Virus record (IMG/VR): IMGVR_UViG_3300012157_000001
Location: 1-64,000 of that record
Source: a virus
Taxonomy: Duplodnaviria; Caudoviricetes
Reading direction: 5' to 3' (one strand)
Length of the DNA stretch: 64,000 nt
Below, piece after piece: positions 552 through 60,164 of this stretch. Position 1 is the first letter of the stretch. Every line of letters starts with the position of its first letter. A program made the translations under genes and the position numbers. The notes under the pieces are model-generated. The model worked only from the letters and a program-made list of their open reading frames with translations, did no database searches and was not told the origin of the DNA.

Positions 552-1088
552 ATGCCGACGCCGACGCTCACCGACTCGCCGCCAACGTGGTTCGGTCCCT
601 TCCGGGGACCCGAGACGACGATCAACACGATGCGGCAGCTGTGCCTCGGGGCACGCGGCGAACGCTCGATGCTCGTGCGCGGTGCGGTCGAGTACTGCAC
701 CCGAGGGCTCCTGAACAAGGACTACCTGTCCGAAATCCTGTCCATCCGAAACTTCGCCGCCGAGAAGGTCCGGTATCAGAACGACCCCGTGGCGCTGGAA
801 TTGGTGAAAGATCCGCAGCGCCTCATTGAAGAGGTTGCGCGGCACGGGATGGCGATCGGCGATTGCGACGATCTAGCCTTGCTGCTCGCGACGATGGGAC
901 GACAGCTCGGCAGGGAGTCGGAGTTCATCACCGTAGGCTTCGGTGCGCCGAACAATTTCTCACACGTGTTCACTCGCGTGAAGGAGCCGAAGACATCGCG
1001 CTGGATCGTGCTGGATCCGGTCGCGGGGACCAAAGAAGGCGCGATGCTCGCGCGTGTCACGACCTGGCGCGCCTGGAAGATCGATTGA
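552..1088 (+). CDS. Transglutaminase-like (papain-fold) cysteine enzyme; candidate maturation protease or cross-linker
   Basis: GDCDD (Cys), FSHVF (His), WIVLDP (Asp) in the order typical of transglutaminase-like domains. Confidence 0.8.
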   Translation: MPTPTLTDSPPTWFGPFRGPETTINTMRQLCLGARGERSMLVRGAVEYCTRGLLNKDYLSEILSIRNFAAEKVRYQNDPVALELVKDPQRLIEEVARHGMAIGDCDDLALLLATMGRQLGRESEFITVGFGAPNNFSHVFTRVKEPKTSRWIVLDPVAGTKEGAMLARVTTWRAWKID

Positions 1089-2808: not shown

Positions 2809-3357
2809 ATGAACAACGGACTCGGTGAGTACTTCAGCGATCAGGCCGCGTTGCCGGCGGCGCCGCAGCACCCCGCAATGTCGGGCCCGACGGCGTTCGA
2901 GTCGCCGGTACCGCCCACGCGCATGACGCCGCTCATGCCCTCGTCGCGCCTGCCGCAGATCAGCGGCATGGGTGACACTGGCATGGGCATCTTCGGCCCG
3001 ACCACAGGCATGGGAGCGTTCAACATGGGCCCGGTGCCGGCGCCTCGGCAGCCGGGCGCGTTTCGCCGGGTCGCGAGCCGGGTCTCTCCGTTCGCTGGAG
3101 CGCTCGGCGACATGGGCGACGTGATCACCGACGCGAAGTCGGGGTTCGTCTCGGGCGCAGCCGCCGCGACGACGCTGACGGGAATCATCCTCGGGATGGG
3201 CCTCCGCTTCGGCGCGGGCTGGATCGTCGGCAAGGCGCTCGCTCCGTCGGCGAAGGACGAAAAGGCGTACACCTGGGGTGGCGCCATCGGGAGCGTGCTC
3301 TTCGGGTCGATCGGTCTCGGAATCGAGGCGCTCGTCGCACAGAACGCGAGGAAGTGA
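2809..3357 (+). CDS. Membrane protein with GLG/GMG motifs
   Basis: Starts MNNGLGEYF (same motif as the repeats in 16327..18567); 2-3 hydrophobic segments. Confidence 0.7.
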   Translation: MNNGLGEYFSDQAALPAAPQHPAMSGPTAFESPVPPTRMTPLMPSSRLPQISGMGDTGMGIFGPTTGMGAFNMGPVPAPRQPGAFRRVASRVSPFAGALGDMGDVITDAKSGFVSGAAAATTLTGIILGMGLRFGAGWIVGKALAPSAKDEKAYTWGGAIGSVLFGSIGLGIEALVAQNARK

Positions 3358-3370
3358 GAGCGGCGCCGGC

Positions 3371-6300
3371 ATGTCGATGAACTCGAACGTCGGTCCGCTC
3401 GGGCAGGGCGCCGTCGCGCAGTCGCAGATGGTTGCTGCCGCAGACGTGAGCGGATTGCCGACCGGATCACTCCTGTGGGCTGACCACGCGAACGAGTTTT
3501 GGGTCGTGGTTCCGGGCGGAGTAGCGCCGATCAGTCTGCTGGCCGAGCGTGCCGGGCGTCCACCGCCGGACGGTGAGCCGGCGATTGGGATGGCTCCGGA
3601 GTTTGCGCTCGTGCGAGAAGGCGACGGCCGCGTGCCGACGCACGGCACGGCGCAACGCCACGTCATTGCATGGGTCCAGAAGGCGCAGCGAGCGCATCCG
3701 AATCCGGCGCACCTGACGCTCGACGGGCAGTTTCGATCTGGGCTTGGACGCCAGGAAGCCTCGCACCTCGCGCTGGACGGCACGTTTTCGTTCGGTGTCG
3801 GCAGCAAGGACGACCGGCACGTGTCCAATGCCCGTCGCCGCGGCGCCCGCGCGGAGGAGCATGGCGCGGTCGTCGTCACGGCCGTGTTGTACCGAGGCAT
3901 CTGGGCGGTGCCGATACGCATCGAAGTTCGGTCTCAGCCAGGGCCCGCACTGGTGCAGTTCTCGTATGAGGAGAAGCGTGCTCGCGAGACGCACGTCCGG
4001 CTGATGAGCGCACTCGCTCAGCTAGGATGGCCACTCGACGCGACGGTCACGGTGCACGTCGACCAGGGCGCGGTTGCAGGCGCAGCAGGATACGCCGGCC
4101 TCGACCTGCCCATTGCGCTCGGTATGCTCGCGCTGAAGGGCCACGTGCCCCGCGAGTCACTCCGCGGAACCATGGCGGTTGGTGAGCTGGCGCTCGACGG
4201 AAGCCTGCGACCGATTCGCGGCGCGGCCGTCGCGGCGGTCGGCGCAAACGTGGACGACGAGACTGAGCTGCTGCTGGTGCCGGCGGAAAACGAGGTAGAG
4301 GCACGGTTCCTCGCCCAAAAACCTGTCATGTCGTTCGGCAATCTGTCGGAAGTCGTGTCGTACATGCAGACACGGGAGATTCCGCACGAGCCGCCCATCG
4401 AGTTCAGGCCGTGCAAGGCTGGCTATGAGGCGCACGACCCCGGGCTTCCGCCGGAAGCGGTGCAAGCGGCACAGCGTGGCCAGAATCTACTGCTAGTCGG
4501 GCCGCCTGGCGCCGGCAAGATGATGGCGGCGCGCTACATCCACTCGACGCTTGCGCGGCTCTCGGTGGCTGACGCAAAGGAGCTCACGGAGATCTACAGC
4601 GTCGCGGGGCTACTGCAGAACCACTACGCCTGTGCGCGTCCGTTCCGTGCGCCGCATCACACCGTGAGCGAAGCGGGTCTCATTGGCGGAGGTGAGGTGG
4701 TCAGGCCTGGAGAGGTAACGCTCGCGCACCGTGGCGTACTGATGCTGGACGAGGTCACGGAGTTCCGGAAGTCGACGCTATTCCCTCTATCAAGGGCACT
4801 TCAAGAGGGCCGAGTCGTATTCAGTCGTGGCGGGACGTCCATTGGGCTTCCGTCGAGCCCTCTTGTCGTGATCGCTACCGCGCTACCATGTCCGTGTGGC
4901 CACTTCGGAACGTCGCGCTGCCGATGCAGCACGCTGGCGGTGGCTAGCCACGAGGAACGCCTCCGCGAGGTGCAGTCGTTCTTCGCGATGCTGCGAGTCG
5001 ATCTGCAGCCCTTGACGGTGGCCGAGATGACGGGAGGCGCCATGCGTCGGAACGCCAAGGGCGACATCATTTGGCAGGACAACCTGCTGACGTGGAAGTC
5101 GGTGGGTGAAGATCGATCTGGGCAGCCCCGCGGCATCGAGATGATTGCCTCGGGCGAAGGGCGCGTGCGAGCCCAGGAGATGCTGGAAGAACGGCAGAGC
5201 CCACACTTCCGTCGCAGCCCACTCTCTCAGGAGATCGACTTTCTCGAAGTGGCGCTCGGCAACGGCTGGAGCACCGTGCCGCCGGAGGACATCGGTGCGC
5301 TCACGGATGCGACGATCGTGAGCCAGGACGGCTTCGTCGGCGACGACGGGAAATGGTACCCGCACCCGGAGGTCGAGGCACCGATCGTTTACGCGCACAT
5401 GAACTACGCCGTGGAAGATCCGGTCGAGATGTGGGCCGAGGGCAAGCCGGTGTTCTGGATGGCGGACGTTCTCACTGTGAACGACGAGCAGCGCACCCGA
5501 GCGAGAGAGGAGTTGTCGAGCGCCATGGGCGAAGCCTACGAGTCGAACGCACGCAAGAACGTCACGGCCGTGATCAACGCCTTCCTCGCTGGGCGGCGGC
5601 ACAGTGAAAAGACGTGCAGCACCGACGGTTGGCGGCTGTACTCGTACGCGCTGCTGATCGCGGCGAGGGTCGACGCTAAGGGAGAACCGGTAGACGTGGG
5701 CGCACCCGGCGCGCGCGTAGTGGTGCTCGACAAGCGTCTGTCGCCGAGTGCCACGACCAGCACCCAGATCAACGCCGTGCTCTCGGCCGTTTCCGGCGCC
5801 CAGGTCGTCGACGACATGCCGTATGCCGCTCGGTATCTGCCGAATGCGGATCAGAAACCGAATGCTCGGAAGGGCCAGTTCAAGGCCCCGGCTTCACTGA
5901 GTCCCGCGGAGAAGTTTTTCTTCGAGTGGGCTGGTGGCAGCTACACCGCTGGCGCGAGCACAGCGCAACGAAAACGCGAACGTATCGATCAAGCCAAGGC
6001 GATGGCCGCGGCGGAGGCAGAGGGGGAAGATCGCGGATGGAAGGTCGAGTGGGACTACGATCAGGAGCCGGACATCTCGTGGATGGACGACGAGCAGCGC
6101 GAGGAGCTGGAGCGCGGAGCCACGGAGATGCTCGTCGCGTTGCTTCGTGACGAAAACGGCAACGTGCTAGCAAGCCTAGGCGGCGTGCACGTGAGCGCAC
6201 GTGGAGGTCGCGACCCTTACGGACGGGTTGTGGAAGCGGAGCTCATCCAGGAGGCTCTGGAAGCCGAGCGCAGCTCCGGAACCGCGATGGCGCTCAACCG

Positions 6301-6553
6301 CGGAAAGCGACGGCAGGCGCGCAACCCGGTATTCCGGCACATGGATCTCGGCGAAATCGAACAGGTACTGGGCGCTCAAGAGATCGCTAGAGTCATGTCG
6401 TCGGATCGTCCGGAGGCGCACGCGAAGTCCCGCGCCGCCGGATGGTGGGACGCGAACGAGCCGGACTACCACGACGCCTACACGAATCTCGCGCGTATGC
6501 TCAAGGCAGGCGTGCTCGACGACCTGGTCGCAGAGGCACGCGGAGCCCGCTGA
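3371..6553 (+). CDS. Multi-module protein with a degenerate ComM/YifB (Mg-chelatase-like AAA+) domain plus 4-5 unrelated modules
   Basis: GLDLPIALG, GELALDGSLRPIRG, GPPGAGK, RPFRAPHH, PGEVTLAHRGVLMLDE, PCPCG are ComM/YifB signatures (~3860-5010); modules separated by Asn/basic linkers. Confidence 0.8.
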   Translation: MSMNSNVGPLGQGAVAQSQMVAAADVSGLPTGSLLWADHANEFWVVVPGGVAPISLLAERAGRPPPDGEPAIGMAPEFALVREGDGRVPTHGTAQRHVIAWVQKAQRAHPNPAHLTLDGQFRSGLGRQEASHLALDGTFSFGVGSKDDRHVSNARRRGARAEEHGAVVVTAVLYRGIWAVPIRIEVRSQPGPALVQFSYEEKRARETHVRLMSALAQLGWPLDATVTVHVDQGAVAGAAGYAGLDLPIALGMLALKGHVPRESLRGTMAVGELALDGSLRPIRGAAVAAVGANVDDETELLLVPAENEVEARFLAQKPVMSFGNLSEVVSYMQTREIPHEPPIEFRPCKAGYEAHDPGLPPEAVQAAQRGQNLLLVGPPGAGKMMAARYIHSTLARLSVADAKELTEIYSVAGLLQNHYACARPFRAPHHTVSEAGLIGGGEVVRPGEVTLAHRGVLMLDEVTEFRKSTLFPLSRALQEGRVVFSRGGTSIGLPSSPLVVIATALPCPCGHFGTSRCRCSTLAVASHEERLREVQSFFAMLRVDLQPLTVAEMTGGAMRRNAKGDIIWQDNLLTWKSVGEDRSGQPRGIEMIASGEGRVRAQEMLEERQSPHFRRSPLSQEIDFLEVALGNGWSTVPPEDIGALTDATIVSQDGFVGDDGKWYPHPEVEAPIVYAHMNYAVEDPVEMWAEGKPVFWMADVLTVNDEQRTRAREELSSAMGEAYESNARKNVTAVINAFLAGRRHSEKTCSTDGWRLYSYALLIAARVDAKGEPVDVGAPGARVVVLDKRLSPSATTSTQINAVLSAVSGAQVVDDMPYAARYLPNADQKPNARKGQFKAPASLSPAEKFFFEWAGGSYTAGASTAQRKRERIDQAKAMAAAEAEGEDRGWKVEWDYDQEPDISWMDDEQREELERGATEMLVALLRDENGNVLASLGGVHVSARGGRDPYGRVVEAELIQEALEAERSSGTAMALNRGKRRQARNPVFRHMDLGEIEQVLGAQEIARVMSSDRPEAHAKSRAAGWWDANEPDYHDAYTNLARMLKAGVLDDLVAEARGAR

Positions 6554-6568
6554 AAGGTGAAACGAACG

Positions 6569-7537
6569 ATGCACTACTCCTACGCACCGAAGCCAGTCGC
6601 CACGACGCCGTGGGGCGCGCCGCTGCAGGGACTCGGACAGTACGAGGTTCCAAACCCGTACGTCTCGACGACGCACCCGTATCCGACGCGATACCACGGC
6701 GGCATCTGGACTCGCCCCGTCTTCGGATATCCGCGGATGGTCTCCGTGCAGTCCGTCTTCAAGTGCGACGACTTCAACGACGGCAACCCGGCGCTGCGCG
6801 GGTTGAACGGTGACTACCAGGTCGGCAATGGTGTCTTCGGTACAGCCAACGGCGGAGGCGGCGTGTTCGGGCCGAGCCTCTACGGGCTCGCCGGGCAGGC
6901 GGACGACATCGACGCAATCGCGAACTACATCTTGAACACCGGTACCGTTTCGACGGCGGCGTTCGACCTCCAGTCCCAGTTTCGGTCCTGGTACAACAAC
7001 CTCGGTCCGTACGATCGCAACTTCAGCGATGACGTGATGGCAAAGGCGACGAGCTATCGCGCTCAGTTCAACGCCGCTAACGTCTCCGGTGGTACTGCTC
7101 CGCTCCAGCCGGCAACGACGTCCTCCTCGGGTGGCGGTGGCGGTGACGCCTTCTCGAAGGCTTCGATCACGAACCTCCAGCAGCTGCTCAACGCATCGCT
7201 CGTCAAGGCAGGATACAATCCGCTCACTCCGGACGGTGCGCTCGGTCCGAGTACGTGCGGCGCGATCCAGACGTATCGGCAGATCACCGGCAATCCGCAG
7301 TCGGGCAACACGTACGACTCCTTCTGCGCAACCAAAAAGCCTTGGAATGCGCCGACCAAGGCGGGCTCTGGCGGTGGCGGCGGTACGCCGACGTACGTGC
7401 CGCCTCCCGTGGCGCCCACGACGCCACAGCCGACGATGCAGGCCGGCATGCTGGGTGCAGGTGCATGGGCGATGGTCGCCGGTGGTGTGCTCGCGATCGG
7501 CGTCGCGGTGGTCGGCAAGAAGAAAGGATGGTTCTGA
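6569..7537 (+). CDS. Membrane-anchored protein with peptidoglycan-binding-like domain
   Basis: LQQLLN..GY.PL..DG.LGPSTCGAI motif; C-terminal TM + KKK. Confidence 0.7.
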   Translation: MHYSYAPKPVATTPWGAPLQGLGQYEVPNPYVSTTHPYPTRYHGGIWTRPVFGYPRMVSVQSVFKCDDFNDGNPALRGLNGDYQVGNGVFGTANGGGGVFGPSLYGLAGQADDIDAIANYILNTGTVSTAAFDLQSQFRSWYNNLGPYDRNFSDDVMAKATSYRAQFNAANVSGGTAPLQPATTSSSGGGGGDAFSKASITNLQQLLNASLVKAGYNPLTPDGALGPSTCGAIQTYRQITGNPQSGNTYDSFCATKKPWNAPTKAGSGGGGGTPTYVPPPVAPTTPQPTMQAGMLGAGAWAMVAGGVLAIGVAVVGKKKGWF

Positions 7538-7539
7538 TC

Positions 7540-8163
7540 ATGTTCTCCAATCTAGGTTCGCTCGGGTCCCGGCGTCGCCGATCGTCCACCAACGGCATCC
7601 TCAGCGGCTTCGGCGCGGTTCCGTCGCAGTGGACTATCGACTCGCGCGTCAAGACGCTGCAGAGCGCTCTGAACTCACAGATGAGCGCGGCGGGCTGCGG
7701 CACGACGCTCAAAGCGGACGGTCTGATCGGTCCGATGACGTGCGGCTCGCTTGCGTGGTCGAAGGCGACTGGATCGCCGCCGCCCTCGTACACCTCATAC
7801 GCGAGTGACATGGACGCCGGATGCCGGTCGATCACGGCGAAGGCTCCGGCGTGTCCAACCGCGGTAGTTCCGCAGCCGTTGCCCGTGGTGGTTCCGGAAC
7901 CGCCGCCGGCTATCGTTACGACGGGGCCGATCATCGTGCCCGGCCCGGTGTCACGCACGCCAGCCGTTCCGGTCGTCGTGCCCGCTGGGCCCGTGCCGCA
8001 GGTCGCGCCGATCATGCCGATGGCTCCAGCGGCATCGGCTGCGAGGAAAGGTACCGACATGAAGACGATCGCGATCATCGGCGGTGCCGTCGTCGCGGTC
8101 GGCCTTGGTGCGTTCCTGCTCCTCGGAAAGAAGAAGCCCAGCGCTCCAGCAAAGGCGGCCTGA
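7540..8163 (+). CDS. Membrane-anchored PG-binding-like protein (paralog of next gene)
   Basis: LQSALN...LKADGLIGPMTC; Pro stalk; TM + KKK. Confidence 0.7.
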   Translation: MFSNLGSLGSRRRRSSTNGILSGFGAVPSQWTIDSRVKTLQSALNSQMSAAGCGTTLKADGLIGPMTCGSLAWSKATGSPPPSYTSYASDMDAGCRSITAKAPACPTAVVPQPLPVVVPEPPPAIVTTGPIIVPGPVSRTPAVPVVVPAGPVPQVAPIMPMAPAASAARKGTDMKTIAIIGGAVVAVGLGAFLLLGKKKPSAPAKAA

Positions 8164-8166
8164 ACC

Positions 8167-9786
8167 ATGACGTCACTCGGATCACTCGGGCCGCGTCTTC
8201 GACGTTCGAAGAGGAACGGAGTTTTCAGCGGACTCGGCGCAGCGCCGTCGCAGTGGACGGTCGATGCGCGCGTGAAGACGATGCAGGGTCAGCTCAATAC
8301 GGTGCTGGCCGGCGCAGGCTGCAGCACAAAGCTGACGACCGACGGCCTCATCGGGCCGGCGAGCTGCGGCGCGCTCGCGTGGGCGAAGGCACGCGGCGCG
8401 CCACCAGCGGCCTACGTCGCAGCGACGGCCGACATAGATGCAGGCTGCAAACCCTTCAAGCCTACCGCGCCGTCCTGCCCGGCGGCCGCTGCGGGGAGCT
8501 ATCCGTACGGGCTCCCGTTTCCCGTCGGAGTGAAGCACGATACTGCGTACAAGTGGCAGTACATGCTGAACAGCGAGCTCGGCGCGCGCGGGATGCCGAC
8601 CGTGCCGGAGGACGGAATCTTCACCACGGCGACGTGTAACGGGATGGGCGCGTTCGTACGCTCGTACAAGGCGGACCCGGACAACCCGACGCCTGACGAC
8701 ACGTTCCTGCAGCTCCTGAATCAATACCAGACCAACATCGTGTCCGCGTGCCAGGCGATGGCGATGCCGACCACGACGACGGCCGTCCCTGTGGTGGCGC
8801 CGGCTCCGGTTGCGCCGACCGTCAGCGGTGCGGATCTGATGAAGCAGCAGCAGACGATGCTGAATACTTGGCTCGTCAGCGTCGGCTACCAACCGATTCG
8901 CGTCACCGGAGCCTGGGACGGACCGACGTGCGGCGCCGGTCAATTCATGACCAAGACGCTACCGGACACGGACCCGACCAAGCTCGCGCTGGCAAAGGTG
9001 CTCGCGCAGATAAAGCCCCTGCTCGGCATGCCGTGCGGGGTCACCGTGACGCCGGTGGCGCCGATAAGGCCACCCGTTGCGCCGCCGACGAGCGCTCAGA
9101 TTCTGCAGATGCAGAAGCTCATCAACTCCGAGGTGCTGCGGCCCGGAGGCTATAAGCTGATCCCGGAAGACGGAAAGCTCGCGGCCGCTACCTGCGGCGC
9201 GGCGAGCGACACGGCATCTGCGGCGAGCATCGGTCGGATCAAGGTGTCGTCGACGCTCCAGACGTTGCTCAATCATCCGGGACTGCTTCCGGCGTGTCTT
9301 CCGATGAAGCCGTGGACGTTTCCGACGGTGGCCCCGGCCCCGGTGGCCGCAGGACCGTCACGTTCGCCAGCGCTTCCGCCGCTCAACCGAGACGGCGAGT
9401 GCGTCATCAACTTCGGACAGACGTACACCGAGATCGGCGTGCTGCAACAGCAGCTGAACGACGTCCTGGCTCAGAACGGATACAAGCCGATCCCGATAAC
9501 GAACAGGTGGGACGCCGCGACGTGCGGCGCGATGTTCGAGCTCGGCGGTAAGTTCTCGCCGCGGCCCTCGTCAGCCTGTCCGCACTACTACTCCGTGCCG
9601 CTTTCGTGCCCGACCGTCACGAAGCCAATGATCGCGCTGCCGCCTGCTCCGGTCGCCAAAAAGACGAACCTCGCGGTCCCGCTCGGTATCGCCGCGCTCG
9701 TCGGAGTCGCAGCCCTGGTCATCGCGAAAAAGAAGGGCCTGATTATGGCGGCGAAGGCCGCCGGACCCGCCGCTACAGCGGTGTAG
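8167..9786 (+). CDS. Membrane-anchored protein with about 5 Cys-containing PG-binding-like repeats
   Basis: Repeated Q..LN..L...GY.PI...G.....TCGA units; TM + KKK. Confidence 0.75.
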   Translation: MTSLGSLGPRLRRSKRNGVFSGLGAAPSQWTVDARVKTMQGQLNTVLAGAGCSTKLTTDGLIGPASCGALAWAKARGAPPAAYVAATADIDAGCKPFKPTAPSCPAAAAGSYPYGLPFPVGVKHDTAYKWQYMLNSELGARGMPTVPEDGIFTTATCNGMGAFVRSYKADPDNPTPDDTFLQLLNQYQTNIVSACQAMAMPTTTTAVPVVAPAPVAPTVSGADLMKQQQTMLNTWLVSVGYQPIRVTGAWDGPTCGAGQFMTKTLPDTDPTKLALAKVLAQIKPLLGMPCGVTVTPVAPIRPPVAPPTSAQILQMQKLINSEVLRPGGYKLIPEDGKLAAATCGAASDTASAASIGRIKVSSTLQTLLNHPGLLPACLPMKPWTFPTVAPAPVAAGPSRSPALPPLNRDGECVINFGQTYTEIGVLQQQLNDVLAQNGYKPIPITNRWDAATCGAMFELGGKFSPRPSSACPHYYSVPLSCPTVTKPMIALPPAPVAKKTNLAVPLGIAALVGVAALVIAKKKGLIMAAKAAGPAATAV

Positions 9787-9847
9787 TCACAGTCGTCCAA
9801 AAGCGACGGCGTGAATCACTTGGGGAAGCGTGTCGTCTAATGGGCAC

Positions 9848-10810
9848 ATGCCACGATCAAGGCGCCAGCTCGGAGTTGGCCAGCGCCACGGGCATCTGAC
9901 GATTGTTGCCCGAGGCAGACTGAACGGAACCTGGCGCGTGCGCTGCTATTGTGGTGTCGAGAAAGACGTACAATCTGGAACCCTCGGCACAGCGACATTT
10001 TCCTGCGGATGCCAACAGAACATTGGCAAGTATCGGCCAGGGGCGAGGTTCTTAGGTCTGACACTGGTGGCGCGCCTCGGTCGCCGGTGGCGCATGCTGT
10101 GCGAATGCGGAAAGGAGATCATCATCGAGGCGGCGAATGCTGGGCGCCAGCGCTCGTGCGGCTGCCACCTGCGGCGCGCAACCAGAGAGCGCCGCGCTCA
10201 GATAATTGGTAAACGATTCGGCCGCCTCGTGGTCCTTAACTTTCAAGGCACCGATGAACGCAGAGAGGCGCGCTGGCTATGCGTATGCGACTGCGGACAA
10301 CAGAAGTCATGGGTACCGATGGGTTCGTTGAAGAGCGGAAGAACGACCTCATGTGGATGTGCGCATGAAGATGCCTCAAGGCGTCGTATCTTGCCTGAGA
10401 ACCGTTCGCTCACCCCGGCGCAGCGACAACGCAGATATGCCCAGTCAGACCGCGGCATGGCCGCGAAACGCCGGGCTCAGTTCCGCTATGCGCGTCGGCG
10501 GTGGGCATCGATTCGCGGGGACCCCGGCGTGAGCTCTAGTCAATGGCTCTTTATTCAGTGGGCCTACGAGCAGCGCTGTGCGTACTGCGGGAGACGACGA
10601 GAACTAACGCAGGACCACGTTGTACCGCGCAGCAAAGGGGGCCGTCACTCCCCAGACAATATCGTCCCGGCCTGCTGGGACTGTAACTACAAAAAGCGCG
10701 CAAGAACGCTGGATGTGGCGCTTCAGATCCTGAAAGTTGCGGACGCCGACGGGTTCGTAGATAAATGGTCACACGTGGGAAACACCGCGAAAGAGTGCCA
10801 TGATGCGTAG
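9848..10810 (+). CDS. HNH endonuclease (homing-endonuclease-like) with Cys-rich N-terminal repeats
   Basis: CAYCG...DHVVPRSKGG...NIVPACWDCN; three G.RF..L....W.C.C.CG...SCGC repeats; lower GC than neighbours. Confidence 0.85.
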   Translation: MPRSRRQLGVGQRHGHLTIVARGRLNGTWRVRCYCGVEKDVQSGTLGTATFSCGCQQNIGKYRPGARFLGLTLVARLGRRWRMLCECGKEIIIEAANAGRQRSCGCHLRRATRERRAQIIGKRFGRLVVLNFQGTDERREARWLCVCDCGQQKSWVPMGSLKSGRTTSCGCAHEDASRRRILPENRSLTPAQRQRRYAQSDRGMAAKRRAQFRYARRRWASIRGDPGVSSSQWLFIQWAYEQRCAYCGRRRELTQDHVVPRSKGGRHSPDNIVPACWDCNYKKRARTLDVALQILKVADADGFVDKWSHVGNTAKECHDA

Positions 10811-12910: not shown

Positions 12911-15286
12911 ATGGCGTACGAGGCGAGGATTGGGCCGTACCCAAAGCCGCGTATGGCGCTCCGTCCGATCCCTTCGTACGCCGGTCTAGGTGTCACGGCT
13001 CCGCCGCCGGTGAGCACGGTGCCGGGACTCCCACCGTCGATCGCGTGGGCACCGAAGAACCTGCCGAAGTTCAATCCCGCGGATTACAACCCGAAAACTT
13101 TCGCGGACGCGCAGTTTACTCGATGGGCGAAACCGGAGATGCAGGCCGGTATCGCATCCGGACGCACTCTCCTCTCACAGAAGCTCGGGATCGCACTGCC
13201 GGCGCTGCCGGCGCTGAACAAAAACGAACTCGTCGATTGGACGACGGGTTACGTGCAGGCCAACGGAGTGCCAACGGATCTGGAGTCCGGCACCAAGATG
13301 GTCACCGCGCTCGCGCACGCGCAGGCGCAGAAACTCGGTGTGCCCCCGGAGTACGTCGCCGCGGCCAACGTCGTAATGAACCCTCCGAAGACGGTCGCCG
13401 AAGGCTTCGCAATGGTGGCGGACCTAGGCGAGGCGTACTTCATGAGGTTCGGCATCCCGTTGCTTCAGAACGAGCTCATGAGCGTGAGCACGAATCTGGC
13501 GATGGTTGCGCAAGCGATTCCGATCCAGTTCGCGATTGCTGGATTCGATGCGCTTTCGGATGGCAAGCTGAGCACCCAGGAAATCGCCGGCATCGCAGTG
13601 CAGGCCGCAGCGTATGCATGTGGCCTCTTGCTGCAGGCTATTGGGATCCCCGCGCCGCTCGGCGCGCTCCTCGCTGGAGTGATCGCTCAGGGCCTGATGA
13701 CCGTCGCCGACGACGTCCTGCACGCGGATGATGCTGACACGCGCGCACGGCGAGAGGCGATTGCGGCACTCGAAGCTCAGCGCCAACAACTAATTACCCA
13801 GTGCGCCACGGCCGCGCAGCAGGTGTGGAACAAGACGCAGGACTACTGGGACAAGGTGCTCGTTCCGATCCAAACGCTCCTCGATCAGCCGCTGGTTGCG
13901 CAGAAGCTGCAGGCCGCAGGCGGCATCCGATACTACGGGCGCAACGTCGTGACGCTGCCGCCCGGCGTCACGCTGCCGAACGCATGGCCGCGCACGAAAT
14001 GGCTCGACTCGTCGATCGTTGCTGCAGCGGCCGATGCGGACAAGGCCGCAAAGGCAGCGGAAGCGCTGGCTGAATCGTACAAGAGTGATTTCCGCAACGC
14101 TGGGCGCTACCGAGCAGAAGCGATTGCGGCGCGCGCAAAGGCGACCGACCTCGCAAAGAAAGCGGCGGCCGAGAAAAAGAAGCCGCTCTACGAGTACGGA
14201 TTCGACTGTCTGTGGTGGGAGGGGGACCTGGTTTTTGACTACCAGCCCGACACGAGGGGACTCCGCCAGTGGTATCCAGCGAACGCGCGACCGTACCCGG
14301 ATGGGTGCCTTTACTTCACGCGGAAAAAGCCGAACACGCAGGCAGGAAAACAGACGTTCGACCAGGCGCAGTGGATGGATGCGAACTACTGGCCGAACCC
14401 AACGCTGATGTGGGAGCGCTGCGCTGTAGCGAGACCCCCGAGCGGATACAGCTACGACCCGCCGAGCTTTCATGCATCGGCAGAGGACGAGGCGCACTGT
14501 CTGCCGACGATGCAGTGGGCGGCGCAAATGCGCATGAACTTCGACGCCTTCAATGTGACGCGCACCATGACCGTGCGGCTCACACCGTACAAGGATCATA
14601 CGTCTGCGGTACGCACGAAGACGGTGACCGTTCTGCCCGGGGCCATGGTCGACGGTAAAGTGAACGCGCAGGCGGCGCTCATGTTTTGGGGTGCGATTCG
14701 GCCGGCGACGGTGTGGTCACAGTACTCCCAGTCCGCCGACGCGCCCGACGTCACGCAATGGAAGGCGTTTGCGTATATCGATCCGTCCGCGATCCAGGTC
14801 TACAAGCAGGACGGCAGCCTGACGGCCAGGCTGAACATCAACGCGGATTACTGCGATACGAATGAGTGGGCGGCGGCAGTACAGACAGCAGCGGCAGCGG
14901 CGGCGCTGGTGCAGCAGGACATCATCCGCACGGTTGCGTGGCAGGTCGGTGCGGAAGAGGCAGCGCGGCAAGCGAAGATCACAAAGGAAGCCGGGGACAA
15001 GGCGGCAGCGCAAACGTCGGCGGCGAACGCGAAGGCCGCCTGGCAGCAGGCTGCGGCCTCGGCGATTGCGCAGCAGGTGGCCAGGGCGCAGCTGCAGGCG
15101 CGAGCGGTCGCGTCGGCGCGCCAAGCCTCGGGGGCATTTGCCGCCGCGACGGCAATGCGCCTCCGGTTCCAAACGGCACAGGCAACGGCCGAGTTCCAGC
15201 GCAAAGCCCTCATCGTCGCCGGGGGTGTCGCAGCGGGCGCCCTGCTGTTTTGGCTGGTCTCCCGCAAGAAGCAAGCGCGGCAGTAG
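12911..15286 (+). CDS. Large membrane protein (791 aa), Ala-rich coiled regions, C-terminal anchor; candidate entry protein
   Basis: Long clean ORF, internal hydrophobic hairpin, C-terminal TM + RKK. Confidence 0.75.
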   Translation: MAYEARIGPYPKPRMALRPIPSYAGLGVTAPPPVSTVPGLPPSIAWAPKNLPKFNPADYNPKTFADAQFTRWAKPEMQAGIASGRTLLSQKLGIALPALPALNKNELVDWTTGYVQANGVPTDLESGTKMVTALAHAQAQKLGVPPEYVAAANVVMNPPKTVAEGFAMVADLGEAYFMRFGIPLLQNELMSVSTNLAMVAQAIPIQFAIAGFDALSDGKLSTQEIAGIAVQAAAYACGLLLQAIGIPAPLGALLAGVIAQGLMTVADDVLHADDADTRARREAIAALEAQRQQLITQCATAAQQVWNKTQDYWDKVLVPIQTLLDQPLVAQKLQAAGGIRYYGRNVVTLPPGVTLPNAWPRTKWLDSSIVAAAADADKAAKAAEALAESYKSDFRNAGRYRAEAIAARAKATDLAKKAAAEKKKPLYEYGFDCLWWEGDLVFDYQPDTRGLRQWYPANARPYPDGCLYFTRKKPNTQAGKQTFDQAQWMDANYWPNPTLMWERCAVARPPSGYSYDPPSFHASAEDEAHCLPTMQWAAQMRMNFDAFNVTRTMTVRLTPYKDHTSAVRTKTVTVLPGAMVDGKVNAQAALMFWGAIRPATVWSQYSQSADAPDVTQWKAFAYIDPSAIQVYKQDGSLTARLNINADYCDTNEWAAAVQTAAAAAALVQQDIIRTVAWQVGAEEAARQAKITKEAGDKAAAQTSAANAKAAWQQAAASAIAQQVARAQLQARAVASARQASGAFAAATAMRLRFQTAQATAEFQRKALIVAGGVAAGALLFWLVSRKKQARQ

Positions 15287-16326: not shown

Positions 16327-18567
16327 ATGGCCAGAACAATCGGCAAAGCGTTCAAGATCGGAAAGAAGCAAGTACGGTCGTACGGCTATGCCTCGCCGAA
16401 TCGAGGCACGTACAAGCCGAACGCAGGCGTGACCGCCATCGCCGCCGTGAACGGCCGCGGCGCCCACGGGAAAAACCGCAGCAGGAGCGCGCGCTCCGCG
16501 ATGAATGGTCTCTCTCGGACGCAGCGGCTCGATCGTGCACGAAAGATCACGAGCTCAGGTCGCGCGGCGTTCGCGCGCCGCATGAGCGCGAGCATGCGCT
16601 CGAACGCCACGCCCGCGCAGATCGCGACGGCGCGGCAGAACATTCGCGCCGCCATCGCGGCTCGGAAGTCGCATCGACGCAACCGGAAGCACCGGCGCAA
16701 TCAGGCGCCGGTCAAAACATCGACTCCTGCCACGACGGCAAACCGCCGCGGCAAACGGCCCTCGAAACACAAGGCCAACTCTCGGAGGAAAAAGACAATG
16801 AGAACCCATCGTCGGAACTTCAGCGCGAAGCAGCGGGCAGCGGCCCTGCGCAATCTCGCCAAGGCACGCCGCGCGCGTCGTCATTCGCCGAATCGGCGTG
16901 GCGGACGGAAGGCCCGCCGCAACGGGCTCATGTCGAACCGGAAGCGTCGGCATCGCCGGAACAACGGCGTGGCCGCTGCGGCTCCGGCGCAGACGGCGAA
17001 CCGGAAGCGTCGGCATCGTCGGAACTTCAGCGCGAAGCAGCGGGCAGCTGCCCTGCGGAATCTTCGCAAGGCGCGCGCAGCGAAGCACCGTCCGAACCGG
17101 AAGCACCGCGCTCGCAAGAACGCGCGTCGTCGTACGCACCGCCGCAACGGGCAAATGGCGAACCGCCGTCATCGCAAGAACGCGCGTCGTCGTACGCACC
17201 GCCGTAACTTCACGGCGAAGCAGCGTGCCGCGGCTCTGCGCAATCTCCGCAAGGCGCGTGCAGCGAAGCACCGTCCGAACCGGAAGCACCGTCGCAACGC
17301 GCGTCGGCGTCCCCGCAAGAACGCGCGTCGCCACCGCCGTAACATCCGGATGGCGACGAACCGCCGTCACCGGAAGAACAGCCGTCGGCGTACGCACCGC
17401 CGCAACTTCACGGCGAAGCAGCGGGCAGCCGCCCTGCGCAATCTCCGCAAGGCGCGTGCAGCGAAGCACCGTCCGAACCGGAGGCGTCGCACGCGGAAGA
17501 ACGCGCGTCGTCGTACGCACCGTCGCAACGGGCAGATGGCGAACCGCCGTCACCGTCGCAACGCGCGTCGGCACGGCAAGGCGTTCCGGAAGAACCAGTT
17601 CATGGCGACGGCCATGGCGGTGATGAAGATCGGAACGGTCACGACCCTCGGCTTCCTCGGCCACAAGCTCGCGACCAAGCTCTTCACGGACAACGTCGTC
17701 GACAAGATCTTCGGATCTTCGGGTGTCGTCACGCCGCCCGCACCGGCGGCAACGAGCGGCCTCGAAGCACTGCAGCCGTACCGCACCATCATCGGTGGCG
17801 CGGCGATGGCGGCGCTCGGCATCTGGGCGACCAACCGGTTCGTGAAGGATGTGCGCGTCAAGATGTTCGTGACCACGGGCATCGCGACGTCGCTCATGCA
17901 CTCGGTCGCGGTGTCACTGCTCGCGAAGTTCACGCCGCAGTACACGGGCTACCTCTCGGGCCACGACGCCACGGCGGTTAACCTCGCCGCGATGTACGGG
18001 CTCGGCGGCGGCGCGAGCATCATGCCGGAGTACCACCCGATCGGTTTCGGTGAGTACTTCGCGCAGAACGGTCTGGGCGAATACTTCGCTCAGAACGGGC
18101 TCGGTGAGTACTTCGCGCAGAACGGTCTGGGCGAATACTTCGCTCAGAACGGGCTCGGTGCCTACACCGGCAACCCCGACCTGATGCAGGCGGCGGCCGG
18201 TTACGGTGCGCTCGACAATCCGAACTCGAACATCATCGATCCGGGCAGCGACCTCGATCGGCAGCTCTCGATCGCCGAGGCAGCCGCGGGCGTCGGTGCA
18301 GTGGCTCCTTACGAGGCGGCAGCCGGCTTCGGCCGCGTGCAGCCTTTCGAGGCGGCCGCTGGCTTCGGTCGGGTGCAGCCCTTCGAGGCGGCAGCCGGCT
18401 TCGGCTCCGTCGTGACGGTGCCGCCGACGGCGGACACCTGGATCCCCGGAACGAGTGACGGCGAGCTCTGGGCCGGCACGGTGGCCATCCAGCAGGGCCA
18501 GTCGGCGAACGAGCTGAACAGCGCCGGCATCCTGGAGACCGGTGGCAACCAGGGGGTGTTCGGCTGA
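16327..18567 (+). CDS. Arg-rich protamine-like core protein fused to membrane segments and GxG repeats
   Basis: SD GGAGG; ~420 aa of R/K/H/N-rich repeats (4x RRNF[ST]AKQRAAALRNL), about 3 hydrophobic segments, GEYFAQNGL x4, EAAAG repeats. Confidence 0.8.
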   Translation: MARTIGKAFKIGKKQVRSYGYASPNRGTYKPNAGVTAIAAVNGRGAHGKNRSRSARSAMNGLSRTQRLDRARKITSSGRAAFARRMSASMRSNATPAQIATARQNIRAAIAARKSHRRNRKHRRNQAPVKTSTPATTANRRGKRPSKHKANSRRKKTMRTHRRNFSAKQRAAALRNLAKARRARRHSPNRRGGRKARRNGLMSNRKRRHRRNNGVAAAAPAQTANRKRRHRRNFSAKQRAAALRNLRKARAAKHRPNRKHRARKNARRRTHRRNGQMANRRHRKNARRRTHRRNFTAKQRAAALRNLRKARAAKHRPNRKHRRNARRRPRKNARRHRRNIRMATNRRHRKNSRRRTHRRNFTAKQRAAALRNLRKARAAKHRPNRRRRTRKNARRRTHRRNGQMANRRHRRNARRHGKAFRKNQFMATAMAVMKIGTVTTLGFLGHKLATKLFTDNVVDKIFGSSGVVTPPAPAATSGLEALQPYRTIIGGAAMAALGIWATNRFVKDVRVKMFVTTGIATSLMHSVAVSLLAKFTPQYTGYLSGHDATAVNLAAMYGLGGGASIMPEYHPIGFGEYFAQNGLGEYFAQNGLGEYFAQNGLGEYFAQNGLGAYTGNPDLMQAAAGYGALDNPNSNIIDPGSDLDRQLSIAEAAAGVGAVAPYEAAAGFGRVQPFEAAAGFGRVQPFEAAAGFGSVVTVPPTADTWIPGTSDGELWAGTVAIQQGQSANELNSAGILETGGNQGVFG
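18049..18156 (+). repeat. Coding tandem repeat, 4 x 27 bp arranged as 2 x 54 bp
   Basis: GGTGAGTACTTCGCGCAGAACGGTCTG alternating with GGCGAATACTTCGCTCAGAACGGGCTC. Confidence 0.9.
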
Positions 18568-52912: not shown

Positions 52913-53181
52913 AGGCCACGAAACGGCAGAAGCCGGAGCCGTGGGACCCAACGCGCCTCAGCTTTCGAACGGTCAGGGAGACCAGCGACCGGATCCGCGC
53001 GCTAGCGAAAAAGGAGGGAATGACCGTCACCAGCCTGATCGCTGAGGCTATCTACATTCACCTGCATCGCTTGGAATCGAGAGGTGATCGGAAACGCCGC
53101 CGGATGCTCGTTTGCGGGGCGTGCGGCAAGCCGGCAGTGGATGCTGCCACTGATGGCAGGAAGAAGAGCAGGCAGCCGTGA
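52909..53181 (+). CDS. Ribbon-helix-helix (CopG/Arc-like) regulator
   Basis: RLSFRT...DRIRALAKKEGMTVTSLIAEAI; C-terminal CxxC. Confidence 0.6.
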   Translation: MKATKRQKPEPWDPTRLSFRTVRETSDRIRALAKKEGMTVTSLIAEAIYIHLHRLESRGDRKRRRMLVCGACGKPAVDAATDGRKKSRQP

Positions 53182-54962
53182 GCACTCTGTTCTACGGAGA
53201 CAACCTGGACAACATGCGGCGGCTCCGCGACGAGACGGTGGACCTCTGCTACATCGACCCGCCGTTCAATTCGAAGCGCACCTACAACCAGATCTACAAC
53301 AACGTCGGACGAGAAGATCGCGCGCAGGCCCGCGCCTACACTGACACGTGGGAATGGGGCGACCGGTCGATCGAAGGATTCCAGGAAATCCTGGGAAACA
53401 AGCACGGGCGGTTCCCCGCGAAGACGATCGATCTGATCAAGGGGCTCCACAAGGTGCTCGGCGAAGGCGGTCTGCTCGCGTATCTCGTGAGCCTGACCAC
53501 ACGAGTCACCGAGATGCATCGGCTCCTCCGACCGACGGGGAGCTTCTACCTGCACTGCGACCCGACGGCGAGCCACTATCTGAAGATCGTGCTCGACAGC
53601 ATCTTCTGTTCGCAGTGCGGCGAGTTCCAGAACGAGATCGTGTGGCGCCGAACCGGCGCGCACGGCAAGACGCAACGCTTCGGGCCGATCCACGACGTCA
53701 TTCTCTTCTACACGAAGTCCGACACATACACGTGGAACCCGGTGAACCGCCCGTATATGCGCGGCCACGTGAAGGAGTACTTCGTGCAAGAGGCCGACGG
53801 CCGTTGGCGGACGAATTACTACGGCAACGTCCTCACTGGGTCCGGGCTCCGCGGCGGCGAGTCGGGGAAACCGTGGCGTGGCTTCAACCCGAGCGCCAAG
53901 GGCCGGCACTGGGCAGTGCCGGGAAAGTTGATCGAGGAGGTCGATGAAGATCTGTCGAAGTTATCGCAGCACGAAAAGCTCGACCGGCTCTACGAGCTCG
54001 GCCTGATCACGATCACGCCGGGCGAGGCGTGGCCGATGTATCAGCGCTACATCAACCGCAGCGACGGCCAGGCCCTGTCGGACCTGTGGGCGTTTCAGCC
54101 GTACACCGATGGCACCGTCTTCGAGACGGCGGACGGTATCGACGCCGACGTGCGGTGGCTGTCGTCGAACGATGCGGAACGACTCGGCTACCCAACGCAG
54201 AAGCCAGAGGGCCTCCTAGAACGCATCGTACGCGCGTCGAGCAAGGAAGGCGACACGGTGCTCGACGCCTACTGCGGCTGCGGAACCACAGTGTCGGTTG
54301 CGCAGCGTCTCGGCCGTGAGTGGATCGGCATGGACATCACGTACCAGTCGATTTCCCTGATCCTCAAGCGCTTGGAAGATGACTTCGGCGAGAAGATAGC
54401 CGAGAGCGTGAAGCTCTCGGGCGTTCCGAGAGACATGGAGTCCGCCGTCGCGTTGGCGCACAAGAAAGACGACCGCGTCCGAAAGGAGTTCGAGAAGTGG
54501 GCGGTGCTGACGTACACGAACAATCGCGGTGCGGTAAACGAAAAGAAGGGCGCGGACGCCGGCATCGACGGAACCGTGCACTTCATGACCGCGGAGAAGG
54601 AGAACGCGCTCATGGTGCTCCAGGTGAAGTCCGGCGGCGTCGGTCGAGGCGACATTGCGAAGCTCCGCGGCGACATGCAACGCGAAGACGCCGAGCTTGC
54701 CGTCTTGATCACGCTGGAATCCGCGAAGGCGCCAATGGTCAAGGAAGCGAATGCCGCGGGGCGCTATCGGCACGAGGTCATGGGCCGGGACTACCCGAGG
54801 ATCCAGATCGTGACCGTCCAGGAGATGATCGAGAAAAGACGCCGGATGGATCTGCCGGTGGAGTGGAAAAAGGAGGCGCCGGCATCCAGTGCTACTGCTG
54901 CCACTGGCGGCACGCGCCGTGCAAGGCATAATGGGAAGAGGCTAAACAATGTTCCACCGTAA
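53178..54962 (+). CDS. N6A/N4C DNA methyltransferase (beta class) fused to Mrr-like nuclease domain
   Basis: GDNL, YIDPPF, YPTQKP..LLERI, DAYCGCGTT; C-terminal DAGIDG...QVKSG. Confidence 0.9.
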   Translation: MSTLFYGDNLDNMRRLRDETVDLCYIDPPFNSKRTYNQIYNNVGREDRAQARAYTDTWEWGDRSIEGFQEILGNKHGRFPAKTIDLIKGLHKVLGEGGLLAYLVSLTTRVTEMHRLLRPTGSFYLHCDPTASHYLKIVLDSIFCSQCGEFQNEIVWRRTGAHGKTQRFGPIHDVILFYTKSDTYTWNPVNRPYMRGHVKEYFVQEADGRWRTNYYGNVLTGSGLRGGESGKPWRGFNPSAKGRHWAVPGKLIEEVDEDLSKLSQHEKLDRLYELGLITITPGEAWPMYQRYINRSDGQALSDLWAFQPYTDGTVFETADGIDADVRWLSSNDAERLGYPTQKPEGLLERIVRASSKEGDTVLDAYCGCGTTVSVAQRLGREWIGMDITYQSISLILKRLEDDFGEKIAESVKLSGVPRDMESAVALAHKKDDRVRKEFEKWAVLTYTNNRGAVNEKKGADAGIDGTVHFMTAEKENALMVLQVKSGGVGRGDIAKLRGDMQREDAELAVLITLESAKAPMVKEANAAGRYRHEVMGRDYPRIQIVTVQEMIEKRRRMDLPVEWKKEAPASSATAATGGTRRARHNGKRLNNVPP

Positions 54963-57553: not shown

Positions 57554-59032
57554 ATGAGCGTATACCGGCAGCCCACATTCTTCGTGCGACGGCCTCCGTT
57601 CCTGCCGTCGAAGGTTCAGCCAGGAGTCACGCCGCTTGTCACGGTGTCCGCGGACGGTCGCTACCTCATCGACGCAGCGGGAAAGCCATTTCGGTTTCAG
57701 TGCGAGGCGGCATGGCCGTCTACGACGCGCGCGACGCTCGCGGAATACGACACGTACTTTCAGGACCGCAAAGCACGTGGCTTCAACACGATCCTCATTA
57801 TGGCGATCGTGCAAGAGGGAGGCTCGTACTCGTGGCAGCGAGCGAACCAAAATGGTGATGAGCCGTTCACGACCGTCGGGCACTTCGACACGCCGAACGA
57901 CGACTACTTCGACTTTCTCGAAGCTGTGATTGATCTCGCGGCGAGCTACGGCCTGCTCATCGTGCTCGCGTACACCTACGTGGGCTTCAACGGCAATCAG
58001 TTCGGCGAGGGCTGGTGGACGGACGTCGCTGCCTCTCACAATACGGAGAGCGTTTGCTACGGCTGGGGCCAGTACCTCGGCAATCGGTTCAAGAACAAGG
58101 CGAACCTGATCTGGTTCTCGGGCGGCGACTACACGATGCCCGACGATGCGACGCGCGCGAAGTACATCAAAATCATGGACGGGATCCGCTCTGTCGGAGC
58201 AATCCAGCTCGCCGGCAGCGAATGGGGCTATCCCGATTCGATTGCAGTCGACCAGGCCGGATACACCTACGGAACGGACCCGAGCGTTGCCGCGCAAAAC
58301 CTCAGCACGTTCTATGCGCAAGGTCAGGGGCAGAACGGCCAGGACTACGGCGCCGCAGATCGATCGTGGGCGGCATCGCCGACGCTTCCGACAATCGCCG
58401 AAGAGGTGATGTGGGCATACGGAACGTACGCGCCGATCGACTCGTCGCGCGCGCCGATTCGCAGGTATCAGCACTGGGCTGTCACCGCCGGGAGCACCGC
58501 GGGAACGTTTTGGGGTGTATGGGACATTGCTGACTGGCACGTGACTGGGACGCCGAAGCTCTGGGAGCAGGCGCTCACGGACATCGTGTCGCTCGACCAG
58601 GCGCGCGCGTTCGAGTTCTACCGACACATCCCGTGGTGGCGCATGCGTCCGAGCGGCACGGCTTCCGGTTACGCGGGCCGGGAGTTGATCGTGTCGGGCA
58701 TCGGGACTGGGGATTCGAAGATCACGTCGTCGATGACGAGCGACGGCATGTGCCTCATCGCGTACGTGCCACCTACCGGAACGGGGGCGACGACGTTCTC
58801 CGTAGACCTTAGGTCGATGTTCGACACGGCGAGGGCGTCGTGGTGGAACCCGACGACAGGTGACTACCAGTCCATCGGTGCGTTCGACAACACGCTTTCG
58901 GCGCAGTCGTTCACGACGCCCGGCGACAACGGAACGGGCTCAAACGACTGGATGCTTCTGCTGGAGGTCGCTACGTCGCTGCCGGCGGTCGCGGCTCAAC
59001 GGACCTTGCGTAACACGCTCTTGAGAATGTAA
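57554..59032 (+). CDS. Glycoside hydrolase-like protein (DUF4038/apiosidase-like TIM barrel plus C-terminal beta domain)
   Basis: VSADGRYL..A.GKPF, Y..DRKARGFNTI, YLGNRFK...NLIW..GGD, WWNPTTG, TPG.N..G.NDW.L. Confidence 0.75.
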   Translation: MSVYRQPTFFVRRPPFLPSKVQPGVTPLVTVSADGRYLIDAAGKPFRFQCEAAWPSTTRATLAEYDTYFQDRKARGFNTILIMAIVQEGGSYSWQRANQNGDEPFTTVGHFDTPNDDYFDFLEAVIDLAASYGLLIVLAYTYVGFNGNQFGEGWWTDVAASHNTESVCYGWGQYLGNRFKNKANLIWFSGGDYTMPDDATRAKYIKIMDGIRSVGAIQLAGSEWGYPDSIAVDQAGYTYGTDPSVAAQNLSTFYAQGQGQNGQDYGAADRSWAASPTLPTIAEEVMWAYGTYAPIDSSRAPIRRYQHWAVTAGSTAGTFWGVWDIADWHVTGTPKLWEQALTDIVSLDQARAFEFYRHIPWWRMRPSGTASGYAGRELIVSGIGTGDSKITSSMTSDGMCLIAYVPPTGTGATTFSVDLRSMFDTARASWWNPTTGDYQSIGAFDNTLSAQSFTTPGDNGTGSNDWMLLLEVATSLPAVAAQRTLRNTLLRM

Positions 59033-60047: not shown

Positions 60048-60164
60048 ACAACTTTCTGGGCCGCGTAACGTCTCTTCTGGTACGTCGTCACAGTGACGCC
60101 GCTGCTGCCACTGGCAGCACCATGGCACGCTGCGTGCAAAGGACGAACCAACCAGGAGAGCCCC

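Follow-up and report, generated by a model that had tools for sequence, protein, structure and literature searches.

Polyvalent proteins are the closest described concept for the gene studied here, which lies at positions 3371–6553 (+) of the viral record IMGVR_UViG_3300012157_000001 (Duplodnaviria; Caudoviricetes). The window, i.e., the whole stretch of DNA that was analysed, is the first 64 kb of this 179,401-bp IMG/VR record (~65% G+C), which carries direct terminal repeats and has a CheckV completeness of 100%. In the available text of Iyer, Burroughs, Anand, de Souza and Aravind (2017; PMC5512222), polyvalent proteins of phages and conjugative elements are predicted to enter the host together with the DNA and to undergo processing into pieces; like them, as far as that text describes them, the present protein joins many unrelated domains in one polypeptide, varies in architecture, and would, by the IMG/VR classification, be encoded by a mobile element. 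Two to fifteen unrelated domains are characteristic of such proteins, and six modules with independent homologue sets were found here (C1–C4 were modelled). Architectures varying by domain shuffling are likewise characteristic, and 37 module families in permuted order were found among 16 proteins. The signature domains MuF, ArdC-N, zincin-like metallopeptidase, SNF2-methylase-LPD36, and LPD gave no Pfam match in the protein at E ≤ 0.1, and the relatives likewise have none of them. Whereas the available text of PMC5512222 proposes processing via embedded metallopeptidases and describes no seam motif, the modules here are divided by a strict motif, hereafter the seam, and no embedded peptidase was detected. 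With roughly even chances, we consider the gene to encode a beads-on-a-string polyvalent protein or polyprotein that would be cut after Asn at the seams, releasing its modules. Cutting is suggested because the seams have a protease-subsite-like pattern (P4, P2, P1, P1', and P2'), are predicted to be accessible, and separate modules of permuted order, and because free genes start at a seam.

Packaged cargo with an address peptide is known from other phages. The internal proteins of T4 and the ejection proteins of phiKZ and SPN3US carry a propeptide, which directs them to the particle and which a morphogenetic protease trims at a short consensus (PMC7411985), and the combination of address peptide and protease consensus is similar in principle to the arrangement proposed here. 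However, in T4/phiKZ-type phages, which have an HK97-fold capsid, a serine prohead protease cleaves at (L/I)xE or AXE (PMC7411985), whereas the polyprotein seam ends in Asn. T4/phiKZ-type cargo proteins have a single propeptide each, whereas many modules share one gene here, and unlike in those phages, profiles of prohead protease, HK97 capsid, portal, and terminase found no match in the genome. The nearest functional analogy may be offered by African swine fever virus (ASFV) and adenovirus. ASFV pp220 and pp62 are cut at Gly-Gly-X by pS273R, and adenovirus protease sites read (M/I/L)XGX-G. Core cargo of a DNA virus made as a polyprotein, a short cut code, and a viral cysteine protease (proposed here for a candidate gene) would be common to these systems; the code differs, the protease fold is unrelated, and the content is hypervariable here in contrast to the fixed content of ASFV and adenovirus polyproteins. 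If cutting at the seams yields particle-borne proteins, the gene would be a prokaryotic counterpart of ASFV and adenovirus core-polyprotein processing, with a plug-in slot turning any gene inserted in frame, here a ComM helicase, into virion cargo.

Polyvalent proteins are regarded as a principal vehicle for the counter-defence and takeover functions that phages and plasmids deliver. The seam code would provide a directly testable handle on how polyvalent chains come apart; it is supported because the modules are permuted, free genes start exactly at a seam, and an upstream enzyme is conserved. It would also supply a rule for spotting cargo in dark viral genomes, where anything between seams would be a candidate.

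Block layout and the seam motif

The open reading frame extends from GTG 3278 to 6553 (+). Translation most likely starts at ATG 3371, because GGAG lies 5 nucleotides (nt) upstream, the ATG is 13 nt past the stop of gene 2809–3357, and this start matches the database protein P0003 (1,060 amino acids, aa), which is identical to the product of 3371–6553. Residue numbers count from GTG 3278, such that M32 corresponds to position 3371. The gene is laid out as follows.

3371–6553 (+): polyprotein gene, 1,060 aa, G+C at third codon positions 0.76, product identical to P0003
3371–3388 (+): seam J0 (MSMNSN), also the start (alignment and seam list)
3389–3703 (+): N-terminal domain, aa 38–142, family F5, in 8 of 16 relatives
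3704–3829 (+): universal short element in two tandem copies, aa 143–184, candidate address tag
3818–3835 (+): seam J1 (HVSN/AR, predicted cut point after N; breakpoint and linker analysis)
3830–5053 (+): ComM/YifB-like module, aa 185–592, family F7 (Pfam; alignment to 8rxd)
5042–5059 (+): seam J2 (MRRN/AK), Met codon with GGAGG 5 nt upstream
5054–5548 (+): module C1, aa 593–757, family F3, mixed alpha/beta, 44 homologues, many of them free-standing
5537–5554 (+): seam J3 (YESN/AR), model confidence below 50 at aa 756–760
5549–5845 (+): module C2, aa 758–856, family F1, the commonest module (13 of 16 proteins), paralogue of 60165–60503
5834–5869 (+): double seam J4 (YLPN/ADQKPN/AR), model confidence below 50 at aa 856–862
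5846–6298 (+): module C3, aa 857–1007, family F6, alpha-beta3-alpha core, 112 homologues among those collected
6287–6328 (+): double seam J5 (AMALN/RGKRRQARN/P), the least confident stretch of the model, with orthologous seams
6326–6550 (+): module C4, aa 1017–1091, family F4, helical, mostly C-terminal and internal in P0078

As read in P0001, the seams are MSMNSN/V at the start, RHVSN/AR, AMRRN/AK, AYESN/AR, RYLPN/ADQKPN/AR, and AMALN/RGKRRQARN/P. The double seam J4 has a single equivalent, YLPN/ARK, in P0006, and in relatives additional N-terminal modules precede HSMRAN, the equivalent of J0 (alignment A4). The sequence-only reading had divided the frame at five linkers, VSNARRR (3821), MRRNAK (5042), ESNARKN (5540), PNADQKPNARK (5840), and ALNRGKRRQARNP (6290), and all five were found at these sites. 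External support for the module borders came from a search of aa 590–1091 against 1.84 billion representative proteins, which returned 614 matches, mostly free-standing proteins of 100–230 aa, with match ranges at aa ~615–754, 752–867, 859–1001, and 1008–1089. Free-standing relatives exist for each of C1, C2, C3, and C4; the C3 family is large and consists of small, mostly free-standing proteins of ~120–150 aa. Sequence comparison resolves the chain into six separable modules, which would fold independently.

The linkers are variants of one motif, small-small-[M/H/Y]-x-[P/A/S]-N-[A/G]-[R/G]. The pattern [MYHF]xxN[AGVRP] has six matches in the protein, all at module borders, compared to 1.18 ± 1.05 in shuffled sequences, 4 of 5,000 of which reached six. 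Among 88 distinct seams from 15 related proteins, Asn is invariant, P4 is M (40), H (24), Y (19), or F (5), and P2 is most often P (28), A (20), or S (12); on the primed side, A (56), G (12), and P (9) lead at P1', and R (31) and G (21) at P2'. All-against-all BLAST of 15 related mosaic proteins yielded 124 homology breakpoint clusters, 81 of which lie ≤10 residues from a seam (random expectation 18.7 ± 3.9, maximum 32 in 2,000 trials). The enrichment is also local to the gene: strict seams number 16 in 2,608 aa of polyprotein and 1 in 9,731 aa of neighbouring genes from three related loci (L008, L010, and L014; Fisher p = 2e-10). The Asn-Ala codons at five window seams vary (AAT GCC, AAC GCC, AAC GCA, AAT GCG, and AAT GCT), so selection would act on the peptide, and a recombination signal in the DNA was rejected on this ground.

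Structure prediction with AlphaFold2 (AF2) places the seams in disordered stretches, with predicted local distance difference test (pLDDT) values of 88–92 inside modules vs <50–70 at seams. The model of C1 and C2 (m6c697ee6f934) has a mean pLDDT of 88 and falls below 50 at aa 756–760 and 856–862, and that of C3 and C4 (m53e8a8cb9e05) has a pLDDT of 92 and values of 58–69 at aa 1002–1021. The inputs were two curated two-module alignments (A2 and A3), used in place of one joint MAFFT alignment covering C1–C4 (A1), in which fragments were misaligned. As in viral polyproteins, several junctions thus share a common consensus in predicted exposed linkers.

Module exchange and capture

The relatives comprise 16 proteins, 12 from the homologue search (P0003 and 11 others), three from the representative search, and P0192 from the related locus L001. 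When the phage collection and the viral and metagenome contigs were searched at the DNA and protein level, and homologues of the N-terminal block were sought, the only further relatives returned were ComM-type matches or the known 124.6-kb contig. Cut at their seams, the 16 proteins give segments that cluster into 37 module families, 17 of them recurrent. The module order is F5-F7(ComM)-F3-F1-F6-F4 in the window, F2-F8-F3-F1-F6-F4 in P0007, and F2-F5-F9-F10-F3-F13-F16-F1-F11 in P0010, and families F4, F8, F12, F13, and F15 change position between proteins. The position of the gene is conserved wherever DNA or gene calls exist (the window, L001, L008/L009, L010, L013, L014, and the P0009 contig), in the order of a transglutaminase-like gene, two or three small membrane proteins, a ~180-aa transmembrane (TM) protein, the polyprotein, and peptidoglycan (PG)-binding membrane proteins. 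Between the same seams, these positional orthologues differ in both the set and the order of their modules; the sequence-only reading had proposed to check for different sets. They therefore do not have the fixed architecture of interdependent domains that it had named as one refutation.

One short element is shared throughout. The sequence PxHLxLDGxFSFGxG(T/S)KDDxH(M/V)xxN is flanked by seams and is the only piece that every one of the 12 aligned relatives contains. Its invariant columns in alignment A4 are N111, P112, H114, L117, G137, S140, G144, and D147, and it stands alone as a 22–25-aa segment (family F14) in P0012, P0057, and P0078; the sequence was not found elsewhere in the genome. 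The element is the best candidate for the tag that the sequence-only reading had posited, and its function as such is one that we infer. Its FSFGVG string appears related to the LRGLG-type string of the membrane proteins encoded in the same block.

The large block at aa 185–592, whose identity the sequence-only reading had not mentioned, is a ComM/YifB-type AAA+ module. Pfam assigns a ChlI/Lon-like domain (PF13541) to aa 232–338 (E = 1e-10) and a Mg_chelatase AAA+ core (PF01078) with a CPCG..CRC zinc finger to aa 397–564 (E = 1.3e-45). The viral module shares a Lon-like N-domain, an AAA+ core, and an embedded zinc finger with Legionella ComM (PDB 8rxd; PMC11612176). It lacks the C-terminal Mg-chelatase domain, which according to the ComM structure paper is tightly linked to the ATPase (PMC11612176): the alignment to 8rxd (E = 2.7e-50) covers only residues 13–362 of 509, the module stops at a seam ~40 aa past the zinc finger, and Pfam gave no match to that domain. 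Unlike 8rxd, the module is also embedded in a modular protein, and in the window lineage the Walker A Thr is replaced by Met: the motif at 4499–4522 reads GPPGAGKM, with ATG in place of the relatives' Thr codon. GKM occurs in P0001, P0004, and P0005, and GKT in P0012 and in P0192, the free-standing L001 copy. Activity of the ComM module is accordingly doubtful on sequence grounds. Read by eye and with no Lon protease aligned, the viral copies inspected have no Ser in the DLPIALG region of their Lon-like domain.

The distribution of ComM illustrates how a cellular gene may enter the chain. ComM is embedded in the polyprotein of the window, P0004, P0005, and P0012. In L001, a 124.6-kb relative, it is instead a separate gene directly after the polyprotein (7515–9161, P0192), which starts M-ARRK where the window seam reads N/ARRR and continues in frame into two seam-delimited modules (HAPN/AR and YARN/AS), one of which, family F8, recurs in P0007, P0009, and P0057. 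ComM is absent from the positional orthologues P0006–P0011, P0013, P0014, P0057, P0061, and P0078; the polyproteins of L008, L010, and L014 lack it, and the called genes of these three loci carry no recorded Mg-chelatase domain. A cellular recombination helicase is thus caught in three states, i.e., absent, adjacent gene, and embedded module.

The second case concerns C2 and its free-standing paralogue:

60165–60503 (+): free-standing C2 paralogue, 112 aa, AGGAGA before the ATG, conserved family P0015–P0045

The similarity noticed by eye in the sequence-only reading was borne out, as block 5549–5845 aligns with gene 60165–60503 with 40/89 identities (45%; BLASTP E = 2e-18), polyprotein aa 755–843 matching aa 22–98 of the 60093–60503 product. 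It is the sole internal paralogue found when each block was compared with the 179-kb genome by tblastn. The free copy starts M-RKN, and the fused copy reads NA/RKN at that point. In a maximum-likelihood tree built from 15 fused and 30 free copies of C2, the two groups part at one branch (support 100/99), which indicates one old duplication or fission and rules out a recent capture of the twin. Of the gene recruitment that the sequence-only reading had proposed, the existence of free-standing versions of the modules and the separate ComM gene of L001 are in favour, and the C2 twin that it had cited is not a recent recruit; on the sequence data, ComM is the better example of capture.

Apart from ComM, the modules resemble little that has been described. 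Searching the blocks separately, as the sequence-only reading had advised, identified ComM by Pfam and gave no convincing structural match for C1–C4. Foldseek of the module models against PDB and BFVD found nothing at E ≤ 1e-3, the best BFVD match for C3 being a weak one to an uncharacterised protein of Rhodococcus phage RGL3 (E = 3.4e-3). Among 48,161 chains compared with VIA-align, the highest Z was 5.1, for a short helical stretch, and C1 reached 3.7 at most; the resemblance of C3 to a double-stranded RNA-binding domain or to T7 Gp1.2 (Z = 4.2) was too weak to be accepted. Profile searches of PDB sequences with the C1+C2 and C3+C4 alignments returned nothing credible, and Pfam, PHROGs, and structure searches assigned no known family or solved fold to any module except ComM. 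A C1-type module also occurs together with DUF5661 in P0164, an unrelated 400-aa protein, and the genome encodes a 1,177-aa GHKL-ATPase protein with DUF5661 at 105467–109000 (−); these observations hint that C1 may circulate among other polyvalent proteins.

Proposed cutting at the seams and competing explanations

In the reading that we favour, a trans-acting viral enzyme would cut the seams after the invariant Asn, and the cut seams would release the modules as separate proteins. The best candidate enzyme is encoded upstream in the same block:

552–1088 (+): transglutaminase-fold enzyme (Pfam Transglut_core, E = 2.2e-5), four genes upstream of the polyprotein in every related locus

Its Cys105, His138, and Asp155 are invariant in four loci (alignment A5), and the gene opens the conserved block in each of the window, L001, L008/L009, and L010. 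As a processing enzyme it is a candidate by inference only. A second candidate, at 116759–118348 (−) of the genome, encodes a putative DUF2201_N metallopeptidase with a VWA-like domain. The ComM Lon-like domain was rejected as the processing protease, ComM being missing from most orthologous loci. The universal 25-residue tag, with seams on either side, would serve as a common address or recognition element, and more speculatively, the released modules would be particle-borne and delivered with the DNA. If modules are released by cutting, new genes such as ComM could therefore join the cargo by in-frame insertion between seams. In all, modular capture is supported by the comparisons above, and the tag, the cutting, and the cargo role are plausible; the anti-defence role raised in the sequence-only reading finds no support. 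A tentative extension, which we consider somewhat unlikely, is that a dedicated Asn-directed system (the upstream Cys-His-Asp enzyme or Asn cyclisation) makes at least six particle-borne proteins in a bacterial-virus lineage without recognisable tailed-phage hallmarks.

Several points weigh against cutting and delivery. Cutting is predicted from sequence and models, and no cleavage product has been observed. Whole-genome seam matches number 11 (3.8 expected), and 3 of the 11 are within the polyprotein gene; given this rarity in the genome's other proteins, the seam is not a general maturation code. The other genomic matches include two near the N-terminus of 16327–18567 and one in 12911–15286, the latter still present with a relaxed P4 (L or M) in L008 and L014 and not in L010. 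Free-standing C3 and C1 relatives of other lineages have no seams, which shows the seam to be context-specific as judged from these sequences and says nothing on cutting. None of the modules matches a known effector or anti-defence family. Pfam Terminase_6N, TerL_ATPase, Phage_portal, Phage_capsid (HK97), and FtsK_SpoIIIE found no match in the genome, so that it is the IMG/VR classification and the gene context that point to a particle and, with it, to packaged cargo. Packaging and delivery are only weakly indicated, solely by the place of the gene in a co-oriented block. We know of no phage protease with [M/H/Y]xxN specificity, and to our knowledge, transglutaminase-fold proteins are not established as virion maturation proteases.

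The strongest competitor, possible although doubtful in our view, is an uncut polyvalent multidomain chain that acts or travels whole, its seams being flexible hinges or docking or DNA-binding peptides. According to the available text of PMC5512222, the polyvalent proteins of phages and conjugative elements are in many cases presumed to function as long chains with multiple domains. The R/K-rich residues after the seam Asn fit such a chain, as does the occurrence of NAR(R/K) in the Arg-rich product of 16327–18567 and at the C-terminus of the 2809–3357 product. However, a plain hinge needs no invariant Asn with a fixed M/H/Y three residues ahead across 88 seams, and neither the free permutation of module order nor the start of free-standing versions at a seam is expected of an uncut chain.

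Cutting after Asn could also proceed without a protease, through self-cleavage by asparagine cyclisation (asparagine peptide lyase chemistry), which we regard as improbable. Asn is the sole invariant residue of the seam, the universal tag starts N-P-x-H, and known lyases cut at Asn/Ala in the nodavirus coat protein and at Asn/Pro-Thr-His in FlhB/YscU (PMC3207474). The scissile residue would thus be Asn in both cases, but the known lyases carry it inside a folded catalytic domain and require that environment (PMC3207474), whereas the seams are predicted disordered linkers between unrelated modules.

Separate initiation, in which the seam Met codons are internal in-frame starts that yield single modules or nested C-terminal isoforms, is very unlikely. 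The ATG of J2 is preceded by GGAGG at 5 nt, the window gene itself begins at a seam Met, and Shine-Dalgarno (SD)-like words precede 8/19 Met seams vs 4/25 His/Tyr seams. Nevertheless, the SD difference is not significant (Fisher p = 0.088), and 48 of the 88 seams (55%) have H, Y, or F at this position, which cannot start translation. A recombination or replication enzyme centred on ComM, with the other blocks as accessory domains, is hardly credible, since it is contradicted by the ComM-less orthologue architectures and the separate L001 gene, and the window copy has a GKM Walker A and no Mg-chelatase C-domain, even though no domain besides ComM is recognisable and no other block is as large. 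Ribosome skipping of the 2A type is rejected, being a mechanism of eukaryotic ribosomes with an NPGP motif that Asn-Ala does not fit.

Neighbouring genes

The block around the polyprotein encodes membrane-anchored and peptidoglycan-binding proteins and an Arg-rich protamine-like protein. Pfam and PHROGs searches, which covered the protein itself, ten relatives, ten proteins with C1 or C3 in common, and ~30 genes that are either neighbours or large, found little besides ComM, the matches being ComM, HNH, transglutaminase core, methylase-Mrr, integrase, apiosidase-like glycosidase, FG-GAP, GHKL-DUF5661, and DUF2201. The genome also encodes a tyrosine integrase (88401–89801), a methylase-Mrr fusion (53178–54962), and an apiosidase-like glycosidase (57554–59032). 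The HNH endonuclease gene lies within the conserved block (window 9830–10810; L001 9164–10027) at a site that varies among relatives, and it is probably a mobile homing-type insertion.

Seam-like strings recur in two of the neighbours. The upstream membrane protein gene 2809–3357 ends in LVAQNARK directly before its stop (3334–3357), a seam-like NARK at the extreme C-terminus. The first ~420 residues of the 746-aa product of 16327–18567 are near-purely basic tandem units (NRRHRRNARRR and similar), followed by hydrophobic segments and NGLGEYFAQ repeats; the protein contains seam-like NAR(R/K) strings and two strict seam matches near its N-terminus (TYKPN/AG and SMRSN/AT).

Between 1101 and 16110 of the window, most membrane proteins share a hydrophobic-x-G-hydrophobic-G string ~6–25 residues from the N-terminus, seen in the genes at 1101, 6557, 7540, 8167, 10800, 12911, and 15343 as LRGLG, LQGLG, LSGFG, FSGLG, FAGFG, YAGLG, and MAGFG. 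These proteins end with a stalk rich in Pro, a single TM helix, and a tail of Lys/Arg, and the string may be a second processing or sorting code. In L010, a 536-aa gene upstream of the conserved block (376–1986) has a weak precomputed match to an AcrVA2-like family (PF26125).

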